IMG/VR virus record: IMGVR_UViG_3300024955_000001
Coordinates: 1 to 64,000 of that record
Source: a virus
DNA: 64,000 nucleotides
Reading direction: 5' to 3' (one strand)
A program made the position numbers and the translations under genes. Below the pieces are notes generated by a model. The model ran no database searches and was not told the origin of the DNA. It saw only the letters and a program-made list of their open reading frames with translations. Positions 4,839 to 41,722 of this stretch are shown one piece after another (the first letter of the stretch is position 1; every line of letters begins with the position of its first letter).

Positions 4839-4850
4839 CCCTATACAGGG
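4839..4850 (-). repeat. Late-module motif copy 1 (coding strand CCCTGTATAGGG)
   Basis: Plus strand reads CCCTATACAGGG. Lies 32 nt upstream of holin ATG 4806. Confidence 0.6.
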
Positions 4851-4868
4851 CGGACAGAATGAAAGGCG

Positions 4869-5234
4869 CTACGAAGGGGTACCGCTGCTGCGCGAGGTGT
4901 AGCGCGGCTGGTTCGGCGGGTGGTACTCGCTCGGGTAGTTCTTGCGGTCGAACTCCTTGGTGTAGGCGTTCTTGCAATGGTCCGGGCCCTGCCAAAAGAA
5001 CAGGAGGTTGATGATGGGCATGAACAACTTGCCCAGCACCTTCCCGTCGCGGTGAGCGCGGTACGCGCGCGCAGACAGCGTTTCGTCCGCGTAGCTCACA
5101 GTGCCGTCCAGCGGCGGGATCAGGGCATTGACGAGCTGATCCACGCCAATGAACACCTGCTGCCCGTAGGCGAGAGCCAGTGCAGCGATGCGTTTAAGCC
5201 GACCGGGCGGCGTCGAACTGGAAACCTGCGTCAT
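4869..5234 (-). CDS. Hypothetical protein between the tail-fibre and lysis modules
   Basis: 121-codon ORF with normal codon bias. Overlaps the upstream gene by 41 nt. Confidence 0.6.
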   Translation of the reverse strand: MTQVSSSTPPGRLKRIAALALAYGQQVFIGVDQLVNALIPPLDGTVSYADETLSARAYRAHRDGKVLGKLFMPIINLLFFWQGPDHCKNAYTKEFDRKNYPSEYHPPNQPRYTSRSSGTPS

Positions 5235-5799
5235 TTGCTTCGTCCTCGATAGATGCGGGCCAACCCCCGCTGTAGTCGTAGCTGCCCGGGTCTGGGCTCG
5301 CTTCCATGGTCATCCGGTGGATCTCAGCCGCCATGAAAATGGCTGAGTCGCTGGCCGCCGTGGCCTGCACGATCTGGATTGCCAGATCACGGGTCATCAC
5401 CACAAACACGGGTTGGGGGACGAACGTCAGCGTCTTCCACTGCAGCCCGGGCGGAATCACGAGCGTGGCCGAGGTCAGCGCGAGCTGCTGGATGCGGCTC
5501 TTCTCGTCGCTGTGGAACCAGTGCGCCCCGACCTTGACGCCCAGGGCAGCGCGGCGGTCGCGCTCGGCTTTGATGGCCTCCCAGGCTGCGGCGCGGCGCT
5601 GCTCGATTGGCGGCGAGACATAGGACGCCTCCACCTCTGCAATCAGTGCCTCGTATGGAGCAGCCTGATCGCCCAGCACGGCGCGCAGTTGTCTCATGGC
5701 CGAATTGGAGTAGCCGTGGCGCAACTCCCCCTCGGCAGTGCTCCAAACTAGTTCAATGGATGGCGGGTCATCGCTCTTGAGTACATCAATGAGGATCAT
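5194..5799 (-). CDS. Tail-fibre assembly/chaperone-like protein (DUF4376-type segment)
   Basis: AAWEAIKAERDRRAALGVKVGAHWFHSDEKSRIQQL resembles the DUF4376 pattern. Located immediately after the fibre genes. Confidence 0.65.
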   Translation of the reverse strand: MILIDVLKSDDPPSIELVWSTAEGELRHGYSNSAMRQLRAVLGDQAAPYEALIAEVEASYVSPPIEQRRAAAWEAIKAERDRRAALGVKVGAHWFHSDEKSRIQQLALTSATLVIPPGLQWKTLTFVPQPVFVVMTRDLAIQIVQATAASDSAIFMAAEIHRMTMEASPDPGSYDYSGGWPASIEDEANDAGFQFDAARSA

Positions 5800-5801
5800 G
5801 G

Positions 5802-6422
5802 TCAGTACCCAGATGCGGTCCCGACAGTGCGGGCAAATGTGTTGCTCAATGCCTCATAGGCGCCATTTGTTGCGTTGAGCGTCACCTGCTGCGATGTCCA
5901 CCCCTCCCCGGCACCGGAGCCCATGCTGACCCCGAAGTTCAGAATGCCCGAGCCAACCCCCGACCCTTGCGAGCTAAGCGGAAAATCGATGGCCGTGCCG
6001 TTCTGGATCGATGCCAGTAGGTGCACCTGGTAGGCGAATGAACTGGTGCCATCGGCATTCGGAAAGCGGATGTCAACAAACGTCTGGCCGTTGGTGCCGT
6101 TGTCAACGACGCGCCAAAGATACGGATGCGCGTGACCGTAGTTGTACGAGCCGAGCAGTTCCACTTTGAGGATGCCGGAGCCGTAAGCAGCGCCCTGCGT
6201 GGTTTTTGCAAACGTCACTTTCAGCATCACATGGCGCGTCGGGATGACCAGGTAGAACTCGGCCATGTAGCCAGCGTTTGAGTTCGACATGGAGCACAGC
6301 CGGTACCAATTCCCGGCGAATGGCAGTAGCGTGCCTGTGAGCACTTTGTTGGCCACGAGCACATTCGGGCCAGACATCACATAGCCCTTATCGAACGAGA
6401 GATTGGCGCCGACGTGCTTCAT
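5802..6422 (-). CDS. Distal tail-fibre / receptor-binding candidate
   Basis: ORF 5802..6515 trimmed to ATG 6422 (ATGA overlap). Beta-rich, Gly/Ser/Asn-rich composition. Confidence 0.55.
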   Translation of the reverse strand: MKHVGANLSFDKGYVMSGPNVLVANKVLTGTLLPFAGNWYRLCSMSNSNAGYMAEFYLVIPTRHVMLKVTFAKTTQGAAYGSGILKVELLGSYNYGHAHPYLWRVVDNGTNGQTFVDIRFPNADGTSSFAYQVHLLASIQNGTAIDFPLSSQGSGVGSGILNFGVSMGSGAGEGWTSQQVTLNATNGAYEALSNTFARTVGTASGY

Positions 6423-7147
6423 CAGGCCACCACAAAGACGCGATATTGACCAACGGTTGGCGCTGTGGAGAAAGTGAGCTGGATCGTGTTGACCCCATTG
6501 GCCACCCAGTCGCACAGCACACCGGCATCGCTACTGACCTCTCGCACGCTCACGGAAACGTCCTTGGTGTTCAGGTTGTGGGTGACGGTGATGGTCGTGG
6601 CGGTGCCGTCACCAACAGTCGCACCCACTTTGCGCGCCACCACCGCAGTGTCGATGGCAATCACGCCGCCAGTGATGGCGGCAATGCCCAGCCCTGCCGT
6701 GTAGCTGGTGCCTCCGCCCACCTGCACCCAGACCAGCGCCGTAGTGCCCAGCGTGATGGGCGCATCGGTGGTCATCTTGAACTGGGCGTTGCCGTTGGTG
6801 GTGCCCTCGGACACGAACACCGTGGCTCCAAGCACCTCGGCGGCAATATCGAAGTCGGTGGCACGGGTCCAGCTGCCCGAGGCTGCCACGTAGATGCCGT
6901 TGGCGGAGCCGCTGGACTGGTCTTTCACCAGCACGCGGTCCCCAGCCACCACGCTCACGCCATCGATGGTCTGGGCGCCCGACAGGGTGATGTTGGCCGT
7001 GGTTGCCGCGCGCACTGGCTCTTTCCACTTGAAGCCCTGGGCCTGGGCATCGAGCTGGGCCTTCGTCACCGCGTCTTGCGGGTTCACAGCGTCCTGCAAA
7101 TTCGCCAGGCGGTTGCCGTTGGCGTCAAAGATATTGGTAATTTTCAT
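6422..7147 (-). CDS. Tail fibre protein
   Basis: N-terminal fibre motif NRLANLQDAVNPQDAVTKAQLD. GAGGAA RBS 7 nt upstream of ATG 7147. Confidence 0.7.
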   Translation of the reverse strand: MKITNIFDANGNRLANLQDAVNPQDAVTKAQLDAQAQGFKWKEPVRAATTANITLSGAQTIDGVSVVAGDRVLVKDQSSGSANGIYVAASGSWTRATDFDIAAEVLGATVFVSEGTTNGNAQFKMTTDAPITLGTTALVWVQVGGGTSYTAGLGIAAITGGVIAIDTAVVARKVGATVGDGTATTITVTHNLNTKDVSVSVREVSSDAGVLCDWVANGVNTIQLTFSTAPTVGQYRVFVVA

Positions 7148-7158
7148 GGTCTGATTCC

Positions 7159-7509
7159 TCAGTTGCAGTAGGCGTAGCCGATGTAGGGCGCCCCGTGGGT
7201 AACCTGCACGATGTCGGCGTCCACATACAGAACGTCAGCGGCGAGCAGATTGCCCAGGTGGTCAGTGACCGCGACGGAAGGGCGCCGCGACAAGTTGTGA
7301 GCCACTGTCCAGACAGCGGAAGGGATTGCCTGCGTGTGGGTGTATGTGGCACCGCCAGCTGGTCCCGGCGGGCCAGGAGGTCCTGGGGGGCCCTGCTCTG
7401 CAACAGCCACAACCTCCGTAATCTCAACCTCGTCAACGACAGTGCTTTCAACCTCGTCGATGACAACATCGGTCAGCACTTCCTCAACGCAAGCGCAGTT
7501 AGACGACAT
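7159..7509 (-). CDS. Small collagen-like fibre-associated protein
   Basis: Acidic V/E repeats (VIDEVESTVVDEVEITEVV) followed by GPPGPPGPPGPAGG. Confidence 0.6.
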   Translation of the reverse strand: MSSNCACVEEVLTDVVIDEVESTVVDEVEITEVVAVAEQGPPGPPGPPGPAGGATYTHTQAIPSAVWTVAHNLSRRPSVAVTDHLGNLLAADVLYVDADIVQVTHGAPYIGYAYCN

Positions 7510-7843
7510 GGGTTGAACCTTCGCGGATGCCTACGCTGCCAGCGGCAAACGGAGTGACATCGCCGCCTGGATGGTCGATCAGCAAGTCATAGGTGCCCCG
7601 CTCCCAATTGATAGCGCCTGTGACTTCGTCAGGGACAACGAGGTCCACCGTTCCATTCACACCGCCGAGAGTGATGAAGGCGGTCAAATCGAGCAGCAGT
7701 GCGCCTTCATCAGAACGGATCTGCATACGCGCTCCGCACCCTGTCAGGTCCACAGGGGTCCCGCTAGGCGTCTTCCAGCGCCAGCGCTTTCTGTAAGTGC
7801 CGCGCTTGTAGATCGTGAGGTTGCTCTTGATCGGCGTGTTCAT
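7499..7843 (-). CDS. Hypothetical virion/tail-associated protein
   Basis: ORF 7499..7879 (TTG) trimmed to ATG 7843 (MNTPIKSNLTIYKRG..). Confidence 0.6.
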   Translation of the reverse strand: MNTPIKSNLTIYKRGTYRKRWRWKTPSGTPVDLTGCGARMQIRSDEGALLLDLTAFITLGGVNGTVDLVVPDEVTGAINWERGTYDLLIDHPGGDVTPFAAGSVGIREGSTHVV

Positions 7844-7871
7844 GCCCTGCAGTTTTCCGGCTGCAGGGCAT
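7842..7871 (-). promoter_or_regulatory. Perfect 11-bp stem-loop covering the start codon of gene 7499..7843
   Basis: The mRNA reads AUGCCCUGCAG-CCGGAAAA-CUGCAGGGCAU. The A and U of start codon 7843 lie in the 3' arm. Confidence 0.5.
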
Positions 7872-7880
7872 GTGGACAAA

Positions 7881-7892
7881 CCCTATACCGGG
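7881..7892 (-). repeat. Late-module motif copy 2 (coding strand CCCGGTATAGGG)
   Basis: Abuts the TAA stop of the giant gene. Lies 37 nt upstream of ATG 7843. Confidence 0.6.
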
Positions 7893-19800: not shown

Positions 19801-20798
19801 GGTTCCGCTTTCGGCTGCTTGAAGCCGTGATAGCCGGAAGCTGCGCCACCCATGGCGCCGCCCGACAGCACGCCCATGACCGCTGCGGAATCCACATCCG
19901 TCAGCCAGTCCTTGCCAAGCGCCACGTTCTGGAAGATTTGCTCGGCCACGGACTGCGGCAGCTCTTCCAGGAAACCCTCGGAGATCGCGCCCTCAATCAC
20001 GCGGCGCGGAATGCTCTTGGCAGCCGCTTGCTGCACCAGAGGATTGACGGCGGCGGTAGCGGCATCGTCAGCGTTCTGCTTCGCCATGCCCTTGGTGCCC
20101 TGGGCCAGCATGGTTTCGGCGTCACCGATACCCAACTTGTTGGCCACGCGGCCGCCCAGCACGCCGAAGCCCGCCGTGGCCACGCCGGTTGCCGCTGCGA
20201 GCGCGGCCTGGGTGGGGGTCAGCAGCCCATCGGGAGTTTCCTGGCGGATCTGCTCGGCTGCGGAACCAGCTGCGGTGATGCCTTCGCCGGCCGCGCCCGC
20301 CAATGCAGCACCAGCGGCGCCCATCTGGCCCAGCTTTGTCGCGGCCATGAGTCCTCGCGCAGCGACGCCCCCAGCGCCCATGCTGGGCAACGACTCACCA
20401 ACGGCCGTCGCAATGAGGCTGGGGTTCTGAACGGCTGTAACGGCCTTGTCCACGATGCCATTGGCATCCTGAAACTTGCGTTGCGCCTCCTTGGTAGCGT
20501 CGGAGTGCCAGTCGTTGGCGATTTCCTTGGCCTGCTTGGGGCGAAAGCCCACAGAGCCACCCTCGTTCTCCAGGAACTTGCCCACCTCGCCGCCCGTGGG
20601 AATGTCGGCAATACCAACCAGGGCCTCGGGCACGCCAATGGCGCCCTTGACAGCTGTGGCAGCAACGTCCTTGATGGTGCCGCTCAGCGTACGCTTCGGC
20701 GAATCCGCTGCACCATCGAACTGGTCAAAGTAGTTCTTTCCTTTGCCACCCGGGCCGGCAGTTGAGGGGTCGAATTGATCAAAGAAGTTGGAGCTCAT
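7893..20798 (-). CDS. Giant (4,301-codon) polyvalent virion/ejection protein with N6-adenine methyltransferase, SNF2/DEAD-like helicase, zincin-like and PLxRFG modules (DarB-like class)
   Basis: Uninterrupted ORF. Motifs in order from the N-terminus:
- N-terminal FDQFD x2 and Gly-zipper region.
- FtsK-gamma-like winged helix, 18423-18599.
- MTase motif IV NPPF, 16620-16631 (LNIGNPPFG).
- Walker A AVGAGKT, about 14460-14480.
- DEAH, 13956-13967.
- QREGRVIRQGN, 12747-12779.
- YHEVLGHH, 11163-11183.
- PLSRFG, 9885-9902.
- C-terminal hydrophobic segments. Confidence 0.85.
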   Translation of the reverse strand: MSSNFFDQFDPSTAGPGGKGKNYFDQFDGAADSPKRTLSGTIKDVAATAVKGAIGVPEALVGIADIPTGGEVGKFLENEGGSVGFRPKQAKEIANDWHSDATKEAQRKFQDANGIVDKAVTAVQNPSLIATAVGESLPSMGAGGVAARGLMAATKLGQMGAAGAALAGAAGEGITAAGSAAEQIRQETPDGLLTPTQAALAAATGVATAGFGVLGGRVANKLGIGDAETMLAQGTKGMAKQNADDAATAAVNPLVQQAAAKSIPRRVIEGAISEGFLEELPQSVAEQIFQNVALGKDWLTDVDSAAVMGVLSGGAMGGAASGYHGFKQPKAEPGASPSEQPGAAPTDAGAAPPNLGMERIQQAFAAQLAALQQQEQGDPNVPQTAPPDGAAALAQQQAQAAEQRQAAMDASRAVQSPDDEIYQSTGATVPRSVAMGLDPAAGPLSASAALAVDTGASDQVQQAAALAQAAEVAQKQGKKTAQGNQKQEQPALTQQGVNQETGEISPGSPMESWSDAQLSNTFRGAQSREVRMQLAQELGRRRALREQQELQAELDAEQRASVPGAERADAAFASLTEDAGPVPADLTIPATTEGNRNGPQAAQAQQGSAQPSQVGAAPAVARGAPDAQGRPGANGAQQAAAAGLTDGAPTANPGAQTAPAPSAQAAPQAEGPAQRVASTGDAWTRMPTAERQALAQRADLKPIVRKNVHRAAWADLNRDVQRKLAVAMEPGAKDDATYTKAVELVRSAGAVNRPAIQAALGIGFGEVNALMDRMERDGVVTAEKANGERSFLPANTAPTGEAVPTAAPAAVTRQDKEKEQPNTGAVIAPAAINSEADKDGNTIVGRRADGVMIRQDKNGVRWYAQGGVRIEETVSLRPTRQGMQVSRGELKPEFMTAAESEAAKPAASPAPAAEKAINVSDENQAGTSTKEAPVATNSVANKAPATAKKPSADQVRAQADLMNALADLGDILGKGTRMNIVPEQEQKLLPVLTRVLDAAFRLGYHKFKDSAKFALDQIRANLGDDAADALTLDHLQGAYIAMAGGKTGADTKRAVIDVETKAEIEQHEAVVAADQAEADNAQQENPSDERTTVRSESPQALDAVAAQEGSRAEGERGAGAGAADSGQAGAAGSAVADGAGLSPARSGGSGPEPVRAPKTRARGRAGAVGAQGTRATGEPVPQADGRVAVPGGEASAPNIPAADFQITDEVGLGKGGEVQKFNDNLAAIRALKAIEAANRRATPEEQAMLARYVGWGGLANAFPDPASGQFKDKWTARGEELRELLTKEEYTAARRSTRNAHYTSQTVVSAMWDMVRRLGYRGGLVLESSMGSGNFLGLAPKDMPNRFVGVEYDSLTARIGQALYPQATVLHSGFQKVPVADNAFMLNIGNPPFGSESLRFQFKPELQGVSIHNQFFRAGMDALRPGGIQAMVVSRFLMDAQDKSSRLALAAQARLVAAIRLPDTAFKENARTEVVTDILIFQKMDAGEQAAMQAAITEYNKLKANKKDADAAAAALVPSWVETVKVPDPLGGEPMNVNAYFAENPANVLGVMERSGSMQHGADITVRLDNPAELGKLLSEAVQRLPEGIQNFQQDVLDATASRHKSMSDALRIAVANEEAGHIKATPDGKLQRVIERETPEGDFEFAYQDVDENSPWHESLSQNAEGQWYSLEPVLDEQGKNVKATNAKGEATRKNLYERKVYAKPEDVPEKLRLGKLGMKRLNGLVGLRDLLKRQLVLETADAVPAVMEGNRKSLAAAYEAFVKANGPVGRSTNMKLAMTMPDGGLIAALEVDYQPERTAEQAARSGLEAQKEKATPAPILRERVVPKYEPATKAATPSDALAITLAESGRVDMERIANLLGVSPEQAGEQLQQGADPLVFKDPETGQWETADAYLSGMVKRKLNAARAAGMTKNAEALEKIIPADWTAENVAVTMGATWVPPEIYADFVRHLVGGKARVSFSALTNSFSVSVDGAERTSMSNWSSEGAPADYIITRILNSKAVTVTARDADGNTYIDKERTALAGLKAREIEAEFGDWVFKNGERRQRLVDVFNEKFNTRVVRQFNGQHLQLPGKVPDAILKMRRHQMNAIWRGIYERFMLVDHAVGAGKTFTAIARAMERRRMGLSRKPMVAVPNHLVEQWAADVYRLYPGAKVLAAGKKDFEAKRRRRLFGKIATGDWDIVIVPHSSFGFIGIAPETESRYLELEMAQAQAAIEDAWEQAREDGTDNGRRKPFNVKEAERLAEKIQARMDRLAEGVRDRLLTFEQLGVDDLTVDEAHEFKNLYYSSNLTGVRGMGDKTGSRKANDLYNKVRVLREQPTGSVTFLTGTPISNSAVEMFTMLRYLAADSLDDMGLSHFDAFRAQFVEATPAFEPTESGRLKQVTRLGRTWSNMRSLMDLYYQVTDAVSLDDIKRFYAEDNPGREFPVPKVAGGKDRNLVAIKPTPAQEQGLKDVMEGFDGLDGIEDPYERNAERLRLMDRARKLSLDIRAVDPRSTSTEEGGKLQVVSENIKRIYDKWDADQGTQLVFLDRSVPKSKGDDAIIKAYDDLVAKRDAALRADDQEAFDEAQEALDRYDPREIAELRQAQTSPWSAYQQIKDNLIATGIPANEIRFVQEANNDEQKAALFDSVNGGKVRVLIGSTPRMGAGTNVQQRAVALHHVDVTWKPSDIEQREGRVIRQGNLFSTPPTAEKPNPMFRADFEVEILAYATERTVDAKMWDLNATKLRTINGIRKYDGAFSMEFDDEEAVGMAEMAALASGNPLLLERVKTESEITTLELQERAFRRRMFGIEDAVESAERAIERNPGRIADERAKKEKANAAMEAADARKAERRVTIEGKEYDNLRDAMTAVNEAIEQQQGGKPTARYSISVDGARLTNKDGIDTAIGAALGDSSLFDVTIDGRLIAQHTVAARELAAKFNELTKGIQPGDSRTATVGSMLGYDLVLDAQARETGKGGGQIDASVSLVDADGATVTSRGLNSFAVNQSVVPANVRNLVTDLFDDIGRLANSSTDYLERQLARAKAELPALRQQLNQTFPKAGELTAKRERLRELVGLLEGKAQSAAPTTPEESEAGDGTAGDAPAFRREAPAGVAQADDFDMASYLAAMDQPSVYSDAARRQAVASVSGTVDAIRAAWGPNAPEVVVAFDMQDQRIPEAARNADLRQRSGGARGAPEGFYYRGKAYLMASRLNTPNDAARVLYHEVLGHHGLRGKFGRDLDQVLNQLATMRKAEVAAKMREYGLRGVNSLSVREAAEEVLAEMAEKTPQLPFVQRAISAIRNFLRQHVPGFQSLRLTDNDIIQAYILPARGWVVRGGPGGGPRGGQPVMSRASDAGSADPDIRFSRSSTADLKDSALAQIHQTLTHPGKVSLWDKTVGTMRNLAERSPVFKPVYEAAQRFIDDVSMLGNDAADRAPRLLPRVETLADLKKKPITAADNQAVAKPLFEGTLLWARDVDGTPVTTEALNAKYRNTTPDEKAQILLRTGKIQEQMLKAWRGLPVDQYNTIINNKFDSTILKPGVIWSEKELKDLFSLNAQQVSLYQEARAAIDRSLDMTARADMLRAMGAGYADLREAVLAQATVEDAMVLITDTLQAEARESPDQADRILSLNNAVVKSYERARALMEAGYAPLSRFGRYTVDVVGKDGTREYFGMFESMYESNKMKAAMEKEFPGATVTQGTMSDEAFKLFQGITPESLEHFGQMLGLSGEGTDPKDKAFQAYLQLAKNNHSALKRLIHRKGISGYSEDVGRVLASFVYSNARLAAGGLNAGTLETAIEGIPKEQGELRDVAMGLRSYIQDPQEEGQAVRGMLFAQYLGGSVASAMVNMTQPFQITMPWLSQFGGMRSAASHLAAAVRDMTRRSGYEPDLAKALQTAEAEGIVSPQEIHQLMAQARGAGSLRTGDGTKLGDARAAAANNWERVKVAWGQPFALAEQFNRRSTFIAAYRIAKEQGMADPAKFAERAVQETQFVYSKANKPKWARGTIGGTLFTFKTYSVSYLELMHRMWTQGGPEGKRAVGWAVAMLLLMGGAGGLPFMEDAEDLIDGAGQLMGYNISTKHWRKQALRDVVGKELADFMEQGVSGLPGAPIDVSGRLGMGNLIPGTGLLLSKQNRERDLLEVAGPAGDLVARGFTGARKLLTGDVAGAALEVSPAAVRNLAKGIDMGTSGIYKDAKGYKVIDTTLDEAIAKAIGFQPKPVAEVQEANSFMQRSKSFYIQTSNDIKAQWAQAVFEKDDDALQRVRDRLAAWNRNNPDQPIVVKIPDVMKRVREMGKDRTARIADTAPKALRQQMRDMARENG
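17237..17536 (-). CDS. Embedded 99-codon ORF in the +1 frame of the giant gene
   Basis: ATG 17536 with AGGAG at 17547-17551; TAG at 17237-17239. Product MSAQLYEARARKHWTQWLPKKVAALKASGELEQALQTAGKQAQQEVLSLMEQGFRQHEAEEVALSQYVLLKPEPEAELEPWERKELAQLESQYRKQMGA. Hand-counted GC3 is about 86% in this frame versus about 37% in the giant frame over the same 300 nt. Confidence 0.6.
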   Translation of the reverse strand: MSAQLYEARARKHWTQWLPKKVAALKASGELEQALQTAGKQAQQEVLSLMEQGFRQHEAEEVALSQYVLLKPEPEAELEPWERKELAQLESQYRKQMGA

Positions 20799-20834
20799 CC
20801 ACCCACTGTCCAGCAGCGTGAGGAATGGGCAAAA

Positions 20835-20846
20835 CCCTATGCCGGG
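20835..20846 (-). repeat. Late-module motif copy 3 (coding strand CCCGGCATAGGG)
   Basis: Lies 36 nt upstream of the giant-gene ATG 20798. Confidence 0.6.
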
Positions 20847-23683: not shown

Positions 23684-23739
23684 GGGGACTCCTTTATTCA
23701 TCTGGCCGGATTGTTGACACCAGCCAGGGGCCCGCAAAG

Positions 23740-23751
23740 CCCTATGCAGGG
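23740..23751 (-). repeat. Late-module motif copy 4 (coding strand CCCTGCATAGGG), within a longer hairpin
   Basis: CCGCAAACCCTGCATAGGGCTTTGCGG. Lies 56 nt upstream of ATG 23683. Confidence 0.6.
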
Positions 23752-32182: not shown

Positions 32183-32191
32183 CGCCGTTCC

Positions 32192-32727: not shown

Positions 32728-32737
32728 GCGTGGCCTA

Positions 32738-35285: not shown

Positions 35286-35328
35286 GGGGCTTGGAACAAG
35301 TATTCCCAGGTGTGGCAAAAACCCTCTG

Positions 35329-35340
35329 CCCTATGCTGGG
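35329..35340 (-). repeat. Late-module motif copy 5 (coding strand CCCAGCATAGGG)
   Basis: Begins 7 nt after the terminator U-run. Lies 194 nt upstream of scaffold ATG 35134. Confidence 0.6.
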
Positions 35341-35346
35341 TAGGCG

Positions 35347-35372
35347 CAAAAAAGCCGCCTCAGTGGGCGGCT
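35347..35372 (-). terminator. Rho-independent terminator inside the head module
   Basis: The mRNA reads GCCGCC-CACUGA-GGCGGC-UUUUUU, 23 nt after stop 35395. Confidence 0.75.
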
Positions 35373-35394
35373 TTCTGGGGTTCGCGGTGGGCGC

Positions 35395-35685: not shown

Positions 35686-35779
35686 AGCTGGAACTCCTGT
35701 GATGGTGCCGTGGCTGCGGCGAAACCCTGACCGTTGCGGGTAGGGCCTCATGGTCAAGCCACGGCGCCGGATCGCTGCG

Positions 35780-35791
35780 CCCTATGCCGGG
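35780..35791 (-). repeat. Late-module motif copy 6 (coding strand CCCGGCATAGGG)
   Basis: The TAG inside the motif is the stop codon of gene 35782..36015. Lies 94 nt upstream of ATG 35685. Confidence 0.6.
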
Positions 35792-36015
35792 CGGCGACCA
35801 CAGATGCGCAGCGGGTACACATCCACAGTGACCTGCACATCGTTGTGGTCACGCACGTGGCAGATTGCGCGGCCTGGCTGAATGGTCCCTGCGCGGAAGT
35901 CCATGCGGTTGACCAGCTCCTGCAGCGCGTCATTGACGAATGGAGCGACGTGCGCCCCCTCGGTGCTACCGGTCACTGTCACGTCAATGCTCAGACGCAG
36001 TTCGGGGCCCATCAC
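35782..36015 (-). CDS. Hypothetical small protein
   Basis: 77-codon ORF overlapping the upstream stop. Confidence 0.55.
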   Translation of the reverse strand: MMGPELRLSIDVTVTGSTEGAHVAPFVNDALQELVNRMDFRAGTIQPGRAICHVRDHNDVQVTVDVYPLRICGRRPA

Positions 36016-36551: not shown

Positions 36552-36608
36552 GAACACTCCTGGGTTGATGAGGGTTCGATGCTCAGTGCCACCCTAGGAA
36601 TGCCATAG

Positions 36609-36620
36609 CCCTATGCCGGT
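36609..36620 (-). repeat. Late-module motif copy 7 (coding strand ACCGGCATAGGG, one mismatch)
   Basis: Lies 5 nt after portal stop 36626 and 57 nt upstream of ATG 36551. Confidence 0.5.
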
Positions 36621-36625
36621 CGGAC

Positions 36626-38914
36626 TCACTGCGGCAGATTGTCGGCAAGGGCGGGTGTCTCGATCCCCTGCATGCCCTGCCCTGCCTCTTGTGGCACGGG
36701 CGGGAATTCCGGGCTGGTGTTCTCGCGCACGGCTGGCGCACCCTGCGCCTCGGCCTCTGGCGAAGCCGCAGCACCGCCACCGCCCTGGATGTATGGGCTC
36801 TTGATGTTCATGGCGGCCGTAACGTCCGGGGTAGGGAAATTCGGGTCCACGCCACCGGGGTTGGGCGGCTGGTATCCAGCGCCCTGCATCACCTTGTCCG
36901 CTATGGGCGCGATCATTGGCATCTGCGCCACTTGCGCTCCTGCTTGCATAGCAGAGAACGCAGCTTGCACGCCGGTTTGCACCGCTTGGGCCATCAGCTG
37001 CTTAATGCGCGCATCGCTCTCGGCCTCCTTCATGGCCACCTCGCGCTCCTTGAGGTCGTGCATCAGCTCCTGCTTGACCTGGTTACGGATGGCCTCGGGA
37101 TCGGCTTGGCCCTGGGCGTTGCGGATGGCCTCCACCACTTCCTTCTTGCGGGGCAAGTCCATCAGGTCGATCATGAACGGCATCACAACCTGCTGGATCT
37201 CGGGCGTGGCGGCCTTGATCGACTCGGACAGCGCGTTGAGCTGCTGGGCGCGGAAGCTGGAGGAGCTGGGCACATCCTCCAATGCAACCTTGAGGCGCGT
37301 GCGCTGTACGTCATTGCTCAGGAGCACGATGTTGGTGTGCGGGTCCACCTCGGGGCTGTTGAGCACCACCGTGCGCGGTGGGTTGAGCACGTCGCCCTCG
37401 ATCACCACCACCGTTTCCTCCTTGCCGATGTCTTCAATGATGAGGGCCGTCAGCATTTCGCCCACCAGCGCACGGGAGTCCTTGAAGTTGTCCATGAGGT
37501 CGGCCAGCGACACCTGGGACTGCTCCACCTGGGTCTGCTCCTGCACGCCGCTGGTGGCCGTGCCTTGCTGGCCCTGGAACGACGGTGTGACGCCCGACAC
37601 ACCAGCAGCAGCCGCGCGCGAGTCCTGCATGAGCTGGAAGTGCTGCGCGTTGAGCTGGAAGTCGCGGTTGCGCTCGAACTTCGCCCCTGGCTGCCCCATG
37701 TGGTCGGCGTCGAGCACAAAGTCTGCATCCACCCGGGATGCCATCTGCCGGAATTGCGCATCCGGCATTTTCACGGCGCCCTTGGTGCGGATCGTCTCCA
37801 CCGCCGACATGCCCCAGCGCAGCTTGGAAATCGTGCTGTTGAGGTTGTCCTGCGGGAAAAGCATGTCGCGCACCAGCCCGAAGGGGATGCCGGTCAGGTC
37901 TTCCTGGGCGGCGATGACGCGCACATAGGGGAAGTGCGGATGTGGGTACGGGCTCGGGCCATCGAACAGGCAATGCGGGCCCATCCAGTAGCTGCGGCGC
38001 ACCACGGGCAGCAGTTCCTCCACCAGCTTGCCACGGCCCAGCGACAGGGCTGCTTGGTGCAGCTGATTGGCCGGGTCGTACTTCACCGCGCGCCCGTCCT
38101 TCATCTTGAGCATCACGGTCGTCACCCAGCGCCGGTACCACAGCTCCGTGATACAGACGGTCTTGTTTTCCTCGTTGTAGTAGGCGTCCTCCACCGTGGT
38201 CCACGCCCGGTGTGCCTCGGCGGCAGCGTGCAGGCCGGTGGACTGTCCGCCCTCCAGCTCCTGGATGCCGAACTCCGCGATCCACTTGTCCGCCCCGTTC
38301 ATGATGATCGTGGCGTGATCGCGGAACATGCGCGCGGCGCGGGTGCGGCTGATCCAGCGGCGGCGGAAGAGCCAGCGAGCGTCCGACAGATCGGGCTCGA
38401 TGGCCTTCATGTCCCACCAAATCTCGTTGCGGTGGATGTAGCGGCACTTGTAGGGGAACTCCAGCGAGTTGCTGGCGCGCGCAACCTCGACCCAGCCGAT
38501 GCCCACAGCGCAGGCAGGCTTGAACGCAGCCGACAACGCGCGATCCGCCTTGGAGTGGCGCTCGGCCTGGTTCAGCTTGAAGTTCAGCGCATCGGCCACG
38601 TCCTGGCCGCCCGGGTCGCCGTCCGGCGTCACGCGCCAGTCGGTGCGCGTCTTGGCCTCCATGCCGCACACGGCGCGGATGGCGGGGCCAATGATGTTTT
38701 CCTTGGCGGGCGGGATGCCCATGTCCTTCAGCTTGCGCAGCAGCTCAGTGCTCAGCTGGTTGCCATCGGCGTAGTCAGCCTCCTTGTCGGCCTGGGCGCG
38801 CCATGGCGGCTGGGCCAGGCTCTCGCGCACGATGGAGGCGAACTCATCACGGGTGATGGGCTCGTCCCGGCCGTCCTGCAGCTCGTAGTTTGTGAGGGGT
38901 TGGGTAGCGTTCAT
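36626..38914 (-). CDS. Portal protein
   Basis: ORF 36626..39100 trimmed to ATG 38914 (MNATQPLTNYELQDGRD..). 762 aa, directly after TerL. Confidence 0.8.
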   Translation of the reverse strand: MNATQPLTNYELQDGRDEPITRDEFASIVRESLAQPPWRAQADKEADYADGNQLSTELLRKLKDMGIPPAKENIIGPAIRAVCGMEAKTRTDWRVTPDGDPGGQDVADALNFKLNQAERHSKADRALSAAFKPACAVGIGWVEVARASNSLEFPYKCRYIHRNEIWWDMKAIEPDLSDARWLFRRRWISRTRAARMFRDHATIIMNGADKWIAEFGIQELEGGQSTGLHAAAEAHRAWTTVEDAYYNEENKTVCITELWYRRWVTTVMLKMKDGRAVKYDPANQLHQAALSLGRGKLVEELLPVVRRSYWMGPHCLFDGPSPYPHPHFPYVRVIAAQEDLTGIPFGLVRDMLFPQDNLNSTISKLRWGMSAVETIRTKGAVKMPDAQFRQMASRVDADFVLDADHMGQPGAKFERNRDFQLNAQHFQLMQDSRAAAAGVSGVTPSFQGQQGTATSGVQEQTQVEQSQVSLADLMDNFKDSRALVGEMLTALIIEDIGKEETVVVIEGDVLNPPRTVVLNSPEVDPHTNIVLLSNDVQRTRLKVALEDVPSSSSFRAQQLNALSESIKAATPEIQQVVMPFMIDLMDLPRKKEVVEAIRNAQGQADPEAIRNQVKQELMHDLKEREVAMKEAESDARIKQLMAQAVQTGVQAAFSAMQAGAQVAQMPMIAPIADKVMQGAGYQPPNPGGVDPNFPTPDVTAAMNIKSPYIQGGGGAAASPEAEAQGAPAVRENTSPEFPPVPQEAGQGMQGIETPALADNLPQ

Positions 38915-38924
38915 GGTCGTCGCC

Positions 38925-40664
38925 TCATGTGCGCCAGTCGGGTGCTGGCGGCATTTCAAATTCGTCATCGGTGCCGTATCCGTCTTCGGATGGCTGGTAC
39001 AGGCCGGACTCCTTGGCCTGGGCCCACTGGCGCAGGGCGTCAGCGCCCTCGGTGCAGCCGTTGGACTTGTCGGGTTCGTCCAGGAACTTGGCCAGGGCAT
39101 GGCTGTATTTCTTGCGATACCCGCGCAGGCGCTCCAGGCCGAACGCGCATGCGTCCTTGTCGAACCAGGCCCCGCGCATGTGCTTGCGCAGGGTGTTCAC
39201 GCCGGTGATGAGCTGGGTGACGCGCGGCACGATCACGAACTTGTGCCCCGGCATTAGCTGCTGAAGCTGCTGCTTGGTGCTGCGGTTCGTATCACCCAGA
39301 CGCTTGTGGTCCGCGTCGTGCGGCAGGTAGTGCTTGCCGAAGACATAGCCCAGGCTCTGCAGGTGCCGCACGTAGTGCCGCAGGTCTTCGTCGTGCTCTT
39401 CGTAGTAGTTGATGAACCGGTCCTCGCCGCGCAGCTGCTGGGCAAACCAGATGGCGCACCCGTCGCTGTTGCCGATGTCCCAGAACGTGTAAACGGGCAG
39501 GTCCAGCACTGGCACAGCGGTGATGCCGCCGCGCTTGGTCAGCTCGGTGATCGCCTTGGTGAGGTAGTGGCCCTCGGTGGACTGCTGGAAGGCCTCGCGC
39601 GGGGTTGAGGGGTACTCCTGCCACATGCGCTCTTCCCGCCCCGGGAAGTCGGCAGCCTGGGTCGCCGCGTACCAAGCCCGCTGTTCCATGTCCAGCGTGG
39701 TACCGGCCTCCACCTCGATGTCATCGAAGTATTTATGCAGGGCATCCGGCACCACCACCGCGCTCGCGTCCATGCGATAACTGGGCTCCTGCCACCACGC
39801 ATAGAAGTGGAAACGGTAGTCCCGCTCCGTGAGTCTCTGGTGGGCGTGGTGCAAGGCCTCGGCCCGCGTGCACAGCTCGTAGAACTCCCCGTTCGCCCCT
39901 TCGGCGGTGGACTCGATCACCAGGACGCCAGACAGCGGCACAGCCGGGATGGAGCCGGTCATCACCTCCTTGGCCTTGTGCGGGAACTTGGCGCAGATCT
40001 TCCCGAACTCGGACACGTGCAGCCGGTGGATCGTGCCGCCCCGCACGCTGGTGGCCACGCGCATGCTGCTGTTGTTGTGCGCGAAGCGGATTTCCTTCGT
40101 GCTCGCGCGGGCCAGGGGGAAGCGCTCGCGGATTTCCTCCGGCAGGTGGTCGTAGGCAAAGATCACCTTGTCCCGGAAGATGGATTCAGCCGTCTCCCGG
40201 TCCTGGGCGATCATCCCGCAGCGCTTATTCCCATTGAACAGGGCCTCATCCAGCCACAGGATGGCAATCAGGGTCGTGAAGCCCAGTTGGCGGGCCTTGA
40301 GGATGATGTTGCGGTGCCACAGGCGCTTGATGAATCGGCGCTGCGCACGATTGGGGATGAACGGCTTGACGAACGACTCGCCCTCGTCAATGACCTCGCC
40401 CTTCTCGTTCTTTACCGGGTCGCCCTTGACGATGATCTGGTACAGCGCACCACTGAACAGGCGCCACTCCGGGTCGGCAAGGCAGCGCTCCAGCTCTTCC
40501 GCGTCGGCGGGCATGCGCACCGCTGGTTGCACGCGCACGCGCTTGAGGTCGCGCGGCTCGTGCGGCCAAATCTTGGTGTCCAGGCTAGACGCCTCATCGC
40601 CTGGGCCTGCAACCCATACGTTGTCGTCCTCTTCCTCGCGCTGAACCTGGGGAGCCTTTGCCAT
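38925..40664 (-). CDS. terL: Terminase large subunit
   Basis: ORF 38925..40865 trimmed to ATG 40664. ATPase and nuclease regions (ILKARQLGFTTL.., VIESTAEG..). Confidence 0.88.
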   Translation of the reverse strand: MAKAPQVQREEEDDNVWVAGPGDEASSLDTKIWPHEPRDLKRVRVQPAVRMPADAEELERCLADPEWRLFSGALYQIIVKGDPVKNEKGEVIDEGESFVKPFIPNRAQRRFIKRLWHRNIILKARQLGFTTLIAILWLDEALFNGNKRCGMIAQDRETAESIFRDKVIFAYDHLPEEIRERFPLARASTKEIRFAHNNSSMRVATSVRGGTIHRLHVSEFGKICAKFPHKAKEVMTGSIPAVPLSGVLVIESTAEGANGEFYELCTRAEALHHAHQRLTERDYRFHFYAWWQEPSYRMDASAVVVPDALHKYFDDIEVEAGTTLDMEQRAWYAATQAADFPGREERMWQEYPSTPREAFQQSTEGHYLTKAITELTKRGGITAVPVLDLPVYTFWDIGNSDGCAIWFAQQLRGEDRFINYYEEHDEDLRHYVRHLQSLGYVFGKHYLPHDADHKRLGDTNRSTKQQLQQLMPGHKFVIVPRVTQLITGVNTLRKHMRGAWFDKDACAFGLERLRGYRKKYSHALAKFLDEPDKSNGCTEGADALRQWAQAKESGLYQPSEDGYGTDDEFEMPPAPDWRT

Positions 40665-40665
40665 G

Positions 40666-41673
40666 TCAGCTCCCGTCGTCGGGCTCGTCGGGCTCGTCGG
40701 GCCGCATAGGCATGCTGGACGCTGGGCGCTCAGGGTCATCCGCAACGGGCTTGAACCCATTGCCACTGCCCGATGCAATGCGCTGCAGCAGGGATGCGAG
40801 CGGATCGGTCTTCTGGTCGTTGTCCTTCTCGTAGAGGCCCAGATGGCGGAAGAGCTTTTCCGCATAGGGCGACTTGTCGTGCGTCTTCACCTCGATGCCG
40901 AACTGCGTCTGCTTGGCTCCTGCGTAGAGCGCAGCGCCCTTCTCGCTCAGGTAGCGGGTGTCCTTGAGCACCACGCGCGCATGGCCGTCGCCGCCGCACT
41001 CGGGGCACTCGGCGTGTGGGGCGCGCAGGGGGTTGAATCCGATGCCGCCTTGCTCATCGAACTCGGCGGGGTTGTTGCCCTTCTCCACCCACTTCTCGCG
41101 GTCGCGGTTCATTTCGCCCACGGTGCGCTGCCACTTGTGGCCCTCGCCGTAGCAGCAGCGGCAGCAGCCGGTTTTGAGCTCCACCAGCTCGCGGGTGTCA
41201 GCCGTGACGATGTTCCACGCCTCACGCAGGACGCCATCGGCGGTGATCTGGGTGCGCTCCTGCTGCTCCTTGCGGGCGGCGTTCAGGGCGCGCTGGATAC
41301 TAAGTTTTGCTAAGAGCTGGGAGCCCTGCTCATTGGCCGTGTGCGGGCTGTACCCGGCACGAATGGCGGCCTGGGTGGCGTTCATGTCCACCATGTACTC
41401 ATCGACAAAGCGCTGCTGCTTGTCGGTCAGTACGGTTTCGGTGGGGGTGATGGTGGGCGCCGGTTCCGGCTGGGGTGTGGCTTGCGCCTTGGCCTTCGCC
41501 TTCGGAGGTGGTGGTGCCTTGGCGGGTTTGGCGCTTGCTGCGGGCGCCTTCTTGGCCGGTGCTGCCTTGCGCGCAGGCGTGACTGAGCCTGCGGCCTTCT
41601 TGGGGGCTGCAGGCTTGGTGGGGGTCTTCTTACTGGGGGGTGCGGACTTCTTGCCCGCTGGGGGTTTGGCCAT
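40666..41673 (-). CDS. terS: Terminase small subunit with a Lys/Ala/Pro-rich histone-H1-like N-terminal extension and a Cys4 insert
   Basis: LTDKQQRFVDEYMVDMNATQAAIRAGYSPHTANEQGSQLL is the Terminase_2-type HTH. Residues 1-75 are KPAA/KKAP low complexity. Cys4 insert reads CCRCC..CPEC. Confidence 0.8.
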   Translation of the reverse strand: MAKPPAGKKSAPPSKKTPTKPAAPKKAAGSVTPARKAAPAKKAPAASAKPAKAPPPPKAKAKAQATPQPEPAPTITPTETVLTDKQQRFVDEYMVDMNATQAAIRAGYSPHTANEQGSQLLAKLSIQRALNAARKEQQERTQITADGVLREAWNIVTADTRELVELKTGCCRCCYGEGHKWQRTVGEMNRDREKWVEKGNNPAEFDEQGGIGFNPLRAPHAECPECGGDGHARVVLKDTRYLSEKGAALYAGAKQTQFGIEVKTHDKSPYAEKLFRHLGLYEKDNDQKTDPLASLLQRIASGSGNGFKPVADDPERPASSMPMRPDEPDEPDDGS

Positions 41674-41710
41674 GCCCGGGAGTCTTCCGGGGCATGGGGG
41701 ATTGGCCTAA

Positions 41711-41722
41711 CCCTATGCTGGG
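41711..41722 (-). repeat. Late-module motif copy 8 (coding strand CCCAGCATAGGG)
   Basis: Lies 37 nt upstream of terS ATG 41673. Confidence 0.6.

Follow-up and report, generated by a model that had tools for sequence, protein, structure and literature searches.

A conserved 12-nt motif as the putative upstream half of eight late promoters in an Acidovorax prophage

The window analyzed here (64,000 nucleotides, positions 1 to 64,000 of IMG/VR record IMGVR_UViG_3300024955_000001) carries a repeated 12-nt motif that, judged from the sequence, is best read as the upstream half of eight complete late promoters of the sigma-70 type in an Acidovorax prophage. We consider it likely that this 12-mer serves as the activator box in a family of phage late promoters read by host sigma-70 RNA polymerase. 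The preliminary description had reported eight copies in one orientation, and a scan of the window confirmed seven exact copies of CCCNGYATAGGG (4839, 7881, 20835, 23740, 35329, 35780, and 41711) and one single-mismatch copy, ACCGGCATAGGG, at 36609, all eight on the minus strand. The chance expectation for exact CCCNGYATAGGG was 0.07, and none of 100 shuffles contained seven or more matches. The motif had a sharp edge: at two mismatches, 36 sites were counted in the window and 34 were expected by chance. A weight-matrix scan of both window strands returned the same eight sites and no further strong ones.

The earlier box-to-start distances (37, 57, 94, 194, 56, 36, 37, and 32 nt) matched the ORF table and sequences, and the gene identities downstream agreed with the late modules proposed in that description: terS–terL–portal; a pair of small ORFs of the head region; one small ORF; the scaffold and capsid genes; an internal or ejection-type protein of 650 aa; the 4301-aa gene; genes of head-decoration-like and tail-fibre-like type; and an endolysin together with a small ORF. 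Since a consensus sigma-70 scan found no canonical promoter in the late region, another driver of late transcription is required.

The sequences flanking the motif had been described as not conserved, which proved wrong. With numbering from the box's first base (position 1), a −10-like hexamer, nAnnnT, occupied positions 37–42, exactly 24 nt after the box and at no other offset, in all eight window copies (P=4e-13). The box (consensus CCCnGYATAGGG, positions 1–12) is usually followed by TT(n)G(n)C at positions 13–18, a weak −35-like element, then by an 18-nt spacer of no fixed sequence, the hexamer (consensus rACACT), which is a non-consensus −10 retaining the critical A(−11) and T(−7), and usually a predicted CA start dinucleotide at positions 49–50, 7–8 nt beyond the hexamer. 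Given this layout with the hexamer and CA start, the centre of the box would fall near −43, abutting the −35 position, as do the sites of class-II-type activators such as Mu C. Among the options listed earlier, a phage-specific late promoter or activator site was the one supported, in the more specific form of the upstream box of a bipartite promoter, and the other readings were not. The predicted elements are as follows.

41673..41722, minus strand: promoter P1 (terS–terL–portal); box CCCAGCATAGGG at 41711-41722, then TTAGGC; −10 AAGACT at 41681-41686
36571..36620, minus strand: promoter P2; box ACCGGCATAGGG at 36609-36620, one mismatch; −10 GAGCAT at 36579-36584
35742..35791, minus strand: promoter P3; box CCCGGCATAGGG at 35780-35791; −10 GACCAT at 35750-35755
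35348..35374, minus strand: intrinsic terminator; AAAGCCGCC-CACUGA-GGCGGCUUUUUU, GGCGGC arm followed by U6; −19.2 kcal/mol, z = −3.8
35291..35340, minus strand: promoter P4 (scaffold, major capsid, and virion genes to ~23786); box CCCAGCATAGGG at 35329-35340; −10 AATACT at 35299-35304
23702..23751, minus strand: promoter P5; box CCCTGCATAGGG at 23740-23751; −10 AACAAT at 23710-23715
20798..20846, minus strand: promoter P6 (4301-aa gene, 7893-20798); box CCCGGCATAGGG at 20835-20846, then TTTTGC; −10 GACAGT at 20805-20810
7843..7892, minus strand: promoter P7; box CCCGGTATAGGG at 7881-7892, then TTTGTC; −10 AAAACT at 7851-7856; ATG at 7843 (predicted leaderless)
4800..4850, minus strand: promoter P8 (lysis); box CCCTGTATAGGG at 4839-4850, then TTGGGA; −10 AATGAT at 4809-4814

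The P2 box begins 5 nt past the portal stop codon, and the P7 box lies directly behind the stop codon of the giant gene. P2 and P5 are leadered, with AGGAG ahead of the ATG at 36557 and AAGGAG ahead of the ATG at 23683, respectively, the latter opening gene 21728-23683 (phrog_11341). P3 has a long structured leader, with the small ORF starting near 35685. P4 is predicted to start at CAAGCC, and its 194-nt spacing leads to the scaffold gene at 35134, with scaffold-like and capsid genes lying downstream; this CAAGC start region is kept in relatives. The terminator noted previously is real and ends 7 nt before the 35329 box, a terminator-then-promoter layout that is kept in many relatives and in phage F116. 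Phrog_1084, head-decoration-like, and tail-fibre-like genes follow P7, and an 89-aa ORF and the endolysin gene follow P8. Orthologous copies of P2 were found in loci L003, L006, L084, and L090 and of P3 in L003, L006, and L084; a P1-type promoter is also kept upstream of terS in relatives, and the holin genes of F116 and AP1 are preceded by a P8-type promoter.

The YATAGGG end of the box, which the preliminary description had likened to phage RNA polymerase start sites, is similar to T7-group promoters from −4 to +3, and the box could accordingly be imagined as the core promoter of a phage single-subunit (T7-like) or virion-borne (N4-like) RNA polymerase starting at the GGG. F116-type giant virion proteins moreover have a C-terminal domain in common with N4 gp50 (PMC5217972). 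We nevertheless judge this reading exceedingly improbable: neither the 4301-aa protein nor any other examined ORF showed an RNA polymerase domain, there is no conservation upstream of the box, where the T7-type specificity region sits, and early rather than late genes would be the expected targets of a virion polymerase. It would also leave unexplained the conserved nAnnnT 25–30 nt further down and the accumulation of ATGs 37–38 nt after the box.

An ATG coincided with the predicted +1 in four of the eight window copies, which leads to a prediction of leaderless mRNAs. The predicted +1 of P1 is the A of the terS ATG (41673), the ATG of P6 (20798) lies 7 nt beyond the hexamer, and P8 is predicted to start at ATG 4800, in frame with the ATG at 4806 chosen in the preliminary description, or 1 nt before it. 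Among 111 unique promoters of relatives, 54 had an ATG at positions 49–51 (35 of them at position 50), and every other ATG offset accounted for 7 or fewer. Of these ATGs at 49–51, 53 opened ORFs of at least 50 codons, only 2 of which had a Shine–Dalgarno-like 4-mer upstream. The N-terminal peptide of TerS was conserved starting from the ATG at the predicted +1, and leaderless equivalents of P6 were present in L006 (21149) and L077 (20126). About half of the late transcription units are hence predicted to yield leaderless mRNAs; transcripts of terS, the giant gene, the 7843 gene, and the lysis cassette would begin at the AUG or one base before it and undergo leaderless translation.

Some 90 related phage loci, Pseudomonas phage F116 and Acidovorax phage AP1 among them, showed the same architecture, on the gene strand only. 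When both strands of related phages were counted (81 loci), weight-matrix matches were strongly gene-strand-biased (196 versus 17). In a regex scan, all unique promoters (56 of type A, 77 of type B, and 13 of type C) lay on the gene strand and none on the opposite one, and all 24 type-A copies in 12 independent prophages from named genomes were gene-strand copies. These types are three variants of the central 4 bp of the box, which across relatives reads CCC-N4-TAGGG (type B, CCCTATAGGG). In 48 unique copies from relatives, A38, A40, and T42 were present in 45, 38, and 46 copies, respectively, with CA at 49–50. Genomes of this group, in Beta- and Gammaproteobacteria, carry 3–8 such promoters each. 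AP1 has the same factor and promoter module with a different virion module, pointing to portability.

The 12-mer is most likely a docking site for an uncharacterised phage DNA-binding protein, for which the sequence offers one candidate.

44172..44774, minus strand: candidate cognate activator; 200 aa from Met15 of ORF 44172-44816; phrog_8117

This factor, which is without annotation, is the only early protein kept in nearly all relatives. In F116 and many prophages, its gene is the last early gene and ends 40–220 nt before the terS box; in the window, 2.4 kb containing Ant and five small ORFs separate it from P1, which counts against the assignment. Factor identity predicted the box type with an AUC of 0.953, whereas identities of portal, capsid, and TerL gave 0.55, 0.56, and 0.57, although this co-variation is partly confounded by shared ancestry and redundant loci. 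The class-specific residues of the factor fall in its winged-helix domain (residue 37 and wing 72–84). The residue-to-base code is not simple, since L010 and L014 have type-A boxes and a factor only 39–40% identical, and L023 and L077 combine a type-B-like wing with mostly type-A boxes. The regulators suggested earlier found no support beside this conserved, co-varying candidate: 46885-47421 encodes an HNH endonuclease and 43459-44175 an Ant/Rha anti-repressor, and each is missing from many motif-bearing relatives.

That the box co-varies with a DNA-binding protein of the winged-helix type would be unexplained if the motif acted as RNA, either as a processing site or as the target of an RNA-binding regulator (boxB-like, CsrA-like, or an endonuclease), with cutting of the conserved ACA-containing hexamer in a hairpin loop immediately 5' of the AUG producing leaderless mRNAs. 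Every copy is transcribed by read-through from upstream, and CsrA-like proteins are encoded by relatives such as F116, BcepMigl, and UAM5. The hexamer of leaderless-type copies is bracketed by an inverted repeat, and since the arms of this repeat differ between lineages, the pairing looks maintained; however, leadered copies without this repeat conserve the hexamer just as well. The boxB-like CCC/GGG hairpin proposed for the 12-mer turned out to be negligible, its −2.7 to −3.4 kcal/mol being matched by shuffles, and is broken in the ACC copy, and the type-B box could not fold as RNA, as its loop would be 2 nt. With no GGA motif for CsrA and no Rfam family match at any copy, we regard an RNA element as very improbable.

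The candidate activator matched no Pfam or NCBIfam family. It is predicted to comprise a disordered N-terminus, a winged helix-turn-helix (residues 25–84), a small beta domain (91–119), and a 55-residue helix (121–175). In the AlphaFold model (pLDDT 74), the winged helix-turn-helix superposes on the DNA-binding domains of IdeR/DtxR at 1.4-1.5 A over 61 residues. Because structure comparison of the remainder matched nothing known, the activator role is argued from position and logic only.

This protein might instead be a sigma-like or RNA polymerase-retargeting factor, or a host alternative sigma might read box and hexamer together. The two conserved blocks at rigid spacing are sigma-promoter-like, the C-terminal two-thirds of the protein has no structural relative, and the hexamer consensus GACACT differs from TATAAT; its lack of T(−12) also counts against activation of a sigma-70 promoter. 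Nonetheless, such an alternative holoenzyme seems unlikely. The centres of box and hexamer are 33 bp apart, ~10 bp more than in any sigma-70-family −35/−10 pair, and the sigma-70 region 2 signature, A(−11) and T(−7), is retained in the hexamer. The model shows an N-terminal winged helix and no sigma-2-like or sigma-4-like helical domains, and the 200-aa protein had no sigma matches in Pfam or NCBIfam. The box type differs between phages of one host genus, which argues against a host factor.

A negative or architectural role of the box-bound protein, as a repressor or insulator keeping late promoters silent pending a further signal, or in partition or packaging, is distinctly unlikely in our estimation. 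The best structural matches (IdeR, ROK, GntR, and LexA) and the frequency of repressors among winged-helix proteins would suit repression, and the description of F116 as non-integrative (PMC5217972) makes a DNA binder of the partition type conceivable. However, the box lies upstream of the −35 and not over the −35, −10, or start, where repressors usually bind; weak −35-like and non-consensus −10 elements call for activation; and the rigid box–hexamer spacing would be meaningless for partition or packaging.

In the preferred reading, that of an activator box, the early rightward operon, controlled by CI/Cro, would supply the winged-helix factor, which, probably dimerising through its long helix, would bind the partly dyad-symmetric box (CCC...GGG). 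The bound factor would then bring in or stabilise RNA polymerase at promoters that are too weak by themselves, turning on together the eight units for packaging, head, virion, giant protein, fibres, and lysis. The system is best read as a new phage late activator family and the promoter regulon it controls, operating in the manner of Mu C or P2 Ogr; we found no published description of it in the literature.

Mu Mor and C sites are centred near −43.5, overlapping or abutting the −35 region, and the same geometry is suggested here (~−43). Mu C is a phage-encoded dimeric activator of several dispersed late promoters (namely lys, I, P, and mom) that have non-consensus −10/−35 elements and use host RNA polymerase (PMC4461284). 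As with Mu C, an earlier-made phage protein, here the candidate, would serve one promoter per functional module, including lysis. Unlike Mu, the present system has eight promoters rather than four, about half of its units are predicted to be leaderless, and the box sequence differs; the candidate, with a winged helix preceding a C-terminal long helix and no Pfam, NCBIfam, or structural match, is not a Mor/C family member. P2 Ogr, P4 Delta, and 186 B are small activators of four dispersed late promoters (packaging, head, tail, and lysis operons) that lack a good −35 and have a partial-dyad site upstream, features shared by the promoters described here. Ogr-type proteins, however, are zinc-finger proteins recognising TGT-N12-ACA near −55, whereas here the protein is of the winged-helix type and the site lies near −43; no Ogr/Delta match was found among the window proteins scanned against Pfam or NCBIfam.

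In Gram-positive phages, a protein of the Ltr superfamily binds, with cognate specificity, to a repeat upstream of terS and acts as the switch for packaging and lysis genes (PMC3753634). The gene position of this superfamily (RinA, ArpU, LtrC, and DUF1492) and of TP901-1 Alt is identical to that of the factor in F116 and many relatives. Ltr proteins, however, are ~15 kDa and unrelated in sequence to the factors found here, which have 150–200 aa and a different predicted fold, and a single promoter drives their whole late cluster, in contrast to the 3–8 per genome here. The lambda Q system likewise has its regulator as the last early gene and its late genes in one long co-oriented block, but Q acts at one late promoter and reads through terminators, whereas here each module has a promoter, one of them directly after a terminator; domain searches of the Pfam/NCBIfam type gave no Q-family match among the window proteins scanned. 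The predicted leaderless starts resemble that of lambda cI from PRM, which begins at the A of the AUG and has no Shine–Dalgarno sequence; in lambda this concerns one regulatory gene, whereas here it would extend to about half of the late units, including terS and the 4301-codon gene.

The 12-mer CCCNGYATAGGG, hereafter the box, occurs seven times without mismatch in the 64-kb window (G+C content, 64%), always on the minus strand (4839, 7881, 20835, 23740, 35329, 35780, and 41711), against an expectation of 0.07 copies from dinucleotide-preserving shuffles. Allowing one mismatch added a single site, ACCGGCATAGGG at 36609, and allowing two returned 36 sites against 34 expected, which is chance level; the 12-mer is thus sharply defined. 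The minus strand also carries the late region, comprising terS, terL, and the genes for the portal, a scaffold-like protein, the major capsid protein, and a 4301-aa protein, together with fibre-like and head-decoration-like genes and the endolysin gene. The distances from box to next start codon reported in the preliminary description agreed with the window sequence, and the terminator placed there 7 nt before the 35329 copy was confirmed by folding, which was needed since a consensus terminator scanner overlooked it.

We aligned the eight window copies, and then 48 non-identical copies from related phages, using the box as the anchor (position 1 is its first C). The flanking sequence had been described as not conserved, which proved wrong, as conserved blocks were present downstream of the box at positions 13–14, 37–42, and 49–50. 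In the 48-copy alignment, T was conserved at 13–14 and CA at 49–50, and no conservation was seen upstream of position 0. The hexamer at 37–42 carried A38 in 45, A40 in 38, and T42 in 46 of the 48 copies, with the consensus rACACT (commonest forms GACACT, AACACT, and AAGACT). In the window, nAnnnT lay at exactly 37–42 in all eight copies with no other offset enriched (P = 4e-13; background frequency of nAnnnT, 2.9%). Sigma-70-family −10 elements are characterised by A in the second and T in the sixth position, and a CA 7–8 nt downstream is a typical start. This combination would place the 12-mer at about −49 to −38, centred near −43. The −35 consensus was poor, positions 13–18 matching TT(n)G(n)C at best and position 13 being C in four of the eight window copies; this weak −35-like element appears to adjoin the downstream end of the box. 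A consensus scan detected no canonical sigma-70 promoter in the late-region intervals 1–9000 and 22001–42000, and a weight matrix combining the 3′ half of the box with the hexamer, applied to both strands of the window, gave strong matches at exactly the eight sites. We consider it very probable that these sites are late promoters with the 12-mer as an upstream box.

Other readings of the element were also considered. Two −10 assignments, an extended −10 and the 12-mer in the −10 role, were dropped when the real hexamer was found 24 nt downstream. Inspection of the sequence led us to reject a sigma-54 element (GG-N10-GC), as some copies lack G at box position 4 and the spacing deviates by 1–2 nt, and a CsrA-binding site was rejected since the box contains no GGA. 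A promoter for a T7-like single-subunit RNA polymerase, in keeping with the earlier suggestion of a phage polymerase start site, fails as well. Promoters of the T7 group have a conserved block of about 17–23 bp that extends upstream of the start, with initiation at GGG, whereas here the upstream side of the box is unconserved and the conserved blocks (13–14, 37–42, and 49–50) all lie downstream. No polymerase domain was found in the giant ORF or the other ORFs scanned, a search that a very divergent enzyme could escape.

A portal-based search of IMG/VR yielded 80 related loci (portal identity, 53–89%). About 27 of them contained the exact 12-mer, in every case on the gene strand; it lay before terS, after the portal gene, or before the scaffold/capsid block, often straight after a terminator. 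The remaining loci carried a variant at the equivalent position with unchanged downstream spacing. All variants are 12-mers of the form CCC-N4-TAGGG and fall into three types by their central part: nGYA in type A (the window type), CCT(G/A/C) in type B (for example, CCCCCTGTAGGG and the palindromic CCCTATAGGG), and CGGC or nGC in type C. A supposed 2-bp indel between types A and B was dropped, since type B is also a 12-mer with C at positions 1–2. Types B and C also keep the hexamer with A(−11) and T(−7) at a fixed distance from the box. On the gene strand, unique promoters with the hexamer in place numbered 56 for type A, 77 for type B, and 13 for type C, whereas the opposite strand had none; weight-matrix matches in the relatives numbered 196 on the gene strand and 17 on the other. 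A generic host repeat of the REP type fails, as orientation and placement were strict and no opposite-strand copy occurred in the window or in about 1.7 Mb of related loci, prophage flanks included.

Pseudomonas phage F116 carries three promoters with the box CCCCCTGTA(A/G)GG, one each ahead of terS, the scaffold gene (there following a terminator), and the holin gene. Acidovorax phage AP1, which has a different virion module (tape measure and baseplate), carries five. The Lessievirus and Gervaisevirus relatives BcepMigl and UAM5 had neither the motif nor the candidate activator described below; they share only terL at the DNA level and are uninformative. Literature searches, whose scope did not extend to the 2005 F116 genome paper, found no account of the box sequences or of late regulation in F116-like phages.

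In four window copies an ATG occupies positions 49–51, at the predicted start of transcription, and an inverted repeat brackets the hexamer in three of them, as well as in relatives:

41673, minus strand: ATG at positions 49–51, terS
20798, minus strand: ATG at positions 49–51, giant gene
7843, minus strand: ATG at positions 49–51, gene at 7843
4800, minus strand: ATG at positions 49–51, lysis cassette, 6 nt downstream of the previously assigned ATG and in frame with it
41673–41700: hexamer-bracketing inverted repeat
7843–7870: hexamer-bracketing inverted repeat
20798–20815: hexamer-bracketing inverted repeat

No Shine–Dalgarno sequence precedes these four leaderless-type starts, and AGGAG or AAGGAG precedes the start codon in three copies with long leaders (36609, 35780, and 23740). 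Across all loci, 54 of 111 unique promoters had an ATG with its A at positions 49–51 (35 at position 50), and 53 of these ATGs opened an ORF of at least 50 codons; no other offset between 30 and 99 accounted for more than seven. In the relatives, the N-terminal TerS peptide MAKPPAGKK... is conserved from the leaderless ATG onward. An ATG pile-up of this kind would be difficult to account for if transcription did not begin there, and it lends independent support to the −10 assignment. Hexamer spacing and pile-up together predict +1 at 49–50 and a box centre near −43. SD-like 4-mers preceded 2 of 53 leaderless starts; the comparison is crude, as automatic start-calling yielded them for only 18 of 90 leadered promoters, which makes the contrast unreliable. 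Across all loci, TT at 13–14 was found in 47 of 52 leaderless-type promoters versus 45 of 94 leadered ones (Fisher P = 1e-7). Within the window the split is complete, with TT in each of the four leaderless copies and C at position 13 in each of the four leadered ones. The association may reflect promoter strength classes or common ancestry of the terS promoters.

The 3′ arm of the inverted repeat ends at or just before the ATG, as in CATGCCCCGG-AAGACT-CCCGGGCATG, and the arms vary by lineage (CCCGG/CCGGG, GGCCGG/CCGGCC, GCGCGCGG/TCGCGCGC, and ACCCGGA/TCCGGGT). The best stem around the hexamer averaged 4.7 bp in leaderless-type promoters, compared with 3.4 bp in leadered promoters and 3.6 bp in shuffles. 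Such a repeat could hide the AUG on read-through transcripts.

Several deposited gene starts differ from the predicted ones. In F116 (L083), the predicted leaderless terS ATG at 7581 lies 75 nt upstream of the annotated start (7656) and in frame with it. In AP1 (L096), four of the five promoters are of the leaderless type; at three of the genes (18338, 41633, and 45292) the annotated start falls within the promoter, 9–21 nt ahead of the leaderless ATG predicted here, and one gene (32940) begins exactly at the predicted +1. The deposited start codons of F116 terS and several AP1 genes are probably misplaced, the leaderless ATGs being used instead.

The giant ORF (4301 aa; 7893–20798, minus strand) is predicted to be translated from a leaderless mRNA. 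Its product contains an FtsK-gamma domain (residues 733–790) and SNF2/ResIII/helicase-C signatures (2083–2683), and is comparable to the DarB-like giant virion protein annotated in Lessievirus BcepMigl. An 880-nt stretch of lower G+C content (0.60; 20847–21727) separates the ejection-type gene from the 20835 promoter and contains a 280-aa ORF on the opposite strand (20889–21731) with only a weak 7TM-like match. This stretch may be an inverted moron, which would account for the presence of a separate promoter for the giant gene.

Every early protein of the window was profiled against the related loci. The product of ORF 44172–44816 (minus strand) was the sole early-region protein present almost everywhere, and we refer to it as the factor. 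The regulators that had been proposed earlier, the HNH protein (46885–47421) and the Ant/Rha protein (43459–44175), were both patchy among motif-bearing loci and were rejected. A 61-aa ORF just upstream of the 41711 promoter (41755–41940), possibly ribbon-helix-helix-like by eye, was rejected because it occurred in only four relatives and did not track box type. A 200-aa "hypothetical protein" of Acidovorax sp. ACV02 is 99% identical to the factor; this match sets the true start at Met15 (44774) and identifies the host group. The factor belongs to phrog_8117, a PHROG of unknown function, and an exhaustive profile search gave 494 clusters at 50% identity, nearly all of 150–200 aa. No Pfam or NCBIfam family matched the factor, its F116 homolog F116p37, or 38 diverse members, and neither sequence nor profile searches found a PDB relative.

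An AlphaFold model of the factor (pLDDT 74) consists of a disordered N-terminus, a winged helix-turn-helix (residues 25–84), a small beta domain, and a 55-residue helix. In this model, the N-terminal domain is a three-helix bundle with a beta-hairpin wing (helices 25–38, 45–52, and 56–68; strands 72–74 and 79–82), the arrangement expected of a winged helix-turn-helix. Foldseek superposed IdeR/DtxR on it with an rmsd of 1.4–1.5 Å over 59–62 residues and matched ROK, GntR, and LexA-type domains to the winged helix alone; no full-length match was found in the PDB or BFVD.

F116p37, which is 41% identical to the factor, is encoded by the last early gene, directly before terS, ending 125 nt before its annotated start, and the same position is seen in many prophages. 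In the related loci L086, L088, and L093, only 40–90 nt separate the factor stop codon from the box. The gap is 2.4 kb in the window, with inserted ORFs. This segment (41723–44171) encodes the Ant/Rha anti-repressor and five small ORFs; since the factor gene abuts the terS promoter in most relatives, it resembles a moron block inserted at this point. Within it, a 110-aa ORF (43053–43385) is preceded by a near-consensus sigma-70 promoter (TTGACT-18-CATAAT; 43437–43408, minus strand).

Factor identity to the window protein was mostly at least 50% in type-A loci, 37–50% in type-B loci, and 25–37% in type-C loci. It separated type A from the rest with an AUC of 0.953, compared with 0.55, 0.56, and 0.57 for portal, capsid protein, and TerL identity. 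Among structural-module lineages at about 53% portal identity, both type-A and type-B phages were present, and the boxes embedded in their structural genes matched the factor in every case. Residues that distinguish the classes map to the DNA-binding domain. At residue 37, type A has R and type B has H; the wing sequences are LKRLLRGxYELVE (type A), xxRVQRGV(Y/F)VPA (type B), and ISRE-PxSYKPL (type C). As judged by these comparisons, box type follows the factor. Twelve prophages in named genomes, found through the factor, provide an independent replicate of the pairing: ten had type-A boxes, and all 24 copies were on the gene strand, a set biased towards type A because the scan used a close factor alignment (A1), the diverse one (A2) being too divergent. 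They came from Acidovorax, Paracidovorax citrulli, Comamonas, Ottowia, Ideonella, and Comamonadaceae and Rhodocyclaceae MAGs. Two loci are intermediate: L023 and L077 have a factor with H at residue 37 and a type-B wing (RGVYVPV), yet carry the type-A boxes CCCTGTATAGGG and CCCGGTATAGGG, as well as one type-B box each (ACCCCTGTAGGG in L023 and CCCCCTATAGGG in L077). L010 and L014 show the opposite case, with type-A boxes and a factor of only 39–40% identity that nevertheless has an A-like wing (RGNYEIV).

This co-variation with a DNA-binding domain also bears on models in which the box acts as RNA, such as a boxB/nut-like hairpin (the preliminary description noted a boxB-like shape), and these models fail. 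The 12-mer can be folded at −2.7 to −3.4 kcal/mol, but 24–32 of 200 shuffles folded equally well, the ACC copy breaks a pair, and the palindromic type-B box cannot form a loop, leaving no stable conserved stem-loop; nor was there an Rfam match at the box copies. A sigma-like role for the factor is possible, but it agrees poorly with the 33-bp centre-to-centre spacing and with the fold. A repressor or a non-transcriptional role does not fit the box position or the rigid coupling of box and hexamer.

An early rightward operon encodes, in order, a Cro-like protein (49875–50147), an O-like replication protein, a resolvase, the HNH protein, and then the factor, opposite a CI-like repressor gene (50217–50975). 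We propose that this operon would supply the winged-helix factor. A factor dimer would bind the box, which has partial dyad symmetry, at about −43, in a class-II-like arrangement; sigma-70 RNA polymerase would thereby be activated at the eight promoters, which would otherwise be weak and each of which serves one late module. One of them directly follows a terminator, where it would restart transcription, and another follows the 880-nt lower-GC stretch with the opposite-strand ORF. Four elements of this proposal are inferences: that the factor binds the box, that it activates and does not repress, which sigma factor takes part, and where transcription starts. We consider the full statement, with the factor as activator of the box promoters, likely.

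In logic, the closest known systems are Mu C and P2 Ogr. Mu C acts at four late promoters with non-consensus elements (PMC4461284), but the factor is not a member of the Mor/C family (Pfam Mor) by sequence, nor of the Ogr family, having no Pfam or NCBIfam match. The Ltr activators of Gram-positive phages (PMC3753634) are closest in gene position; however, the factor does not belong to the Ltr superfamily (RinA/ArpU/LtrC/DUF1492) by sequence, and Ltr serves a single promoter for the whole late cluster, compared with eight promoters in the window, three in F116, and five in AP1. Lambda Q likewise acts at one late promoter with a Q-binding element, as opposed to eight promoter copies here, and no Q-family match was found among the window early ORFs. 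We classify the system as a familiar regulatory strategy with an undescribed protein family and promoter type and unusually systematic leaderless starts.

If correct, this would identify the late-gene regulon, and the master switch that controls it, in a large and hitherto unstudied group of temperate phages, which includes F116-like Pseudomonas aeruginosa transducing phages and prophages of plant-pathogenic Acidovorax and Paracidovorax and of Comamonas, Ottowia, and relatives, and for which no late regulator is annotated. It would assign a function to a protein family lacking a Pfam entry, correct gene starts (F116 terS and several AP1 genes), and point to leaderless mRNAs as a regular vehicle of late-gene expression in Gram-negative hosts, in which they are considered rare. 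Ready-made orthogonal activator–promoter pairs for high-GC Proteobacteria would be available from the three natural specificity classes of box and protein. A bolder reading, which we regard as doubtful, is that box, winged-helix protein, and leaderless starts form a dedicated late-expression channel coupling promoter identity to translatability. TerS, the giant protein, and the lysis genes would then be translated solely from transcripts starting exactly at box promoters, since the lack of a Shine–Dalgarno sequence and the hairpin just 5′ of the AUG would prevent translation when early or upstream transcripts read through. With the factor, a new class of phage late-gene specificity factors, spread across Burkholderiales and Pseudomonas phages, would have its founding member, and the central-4-bp recognition code could be reprogrammed to give orthogonal promoter/activator pairs.

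We also detected the Rfam Burkholderiales-2 RNA motif (RF02917) at 51487–51561 on the minus strand (91 bits; gathering score, 67.9); it falls within the immunity region, some 500 nt away from the gene for the CI-like repressor.
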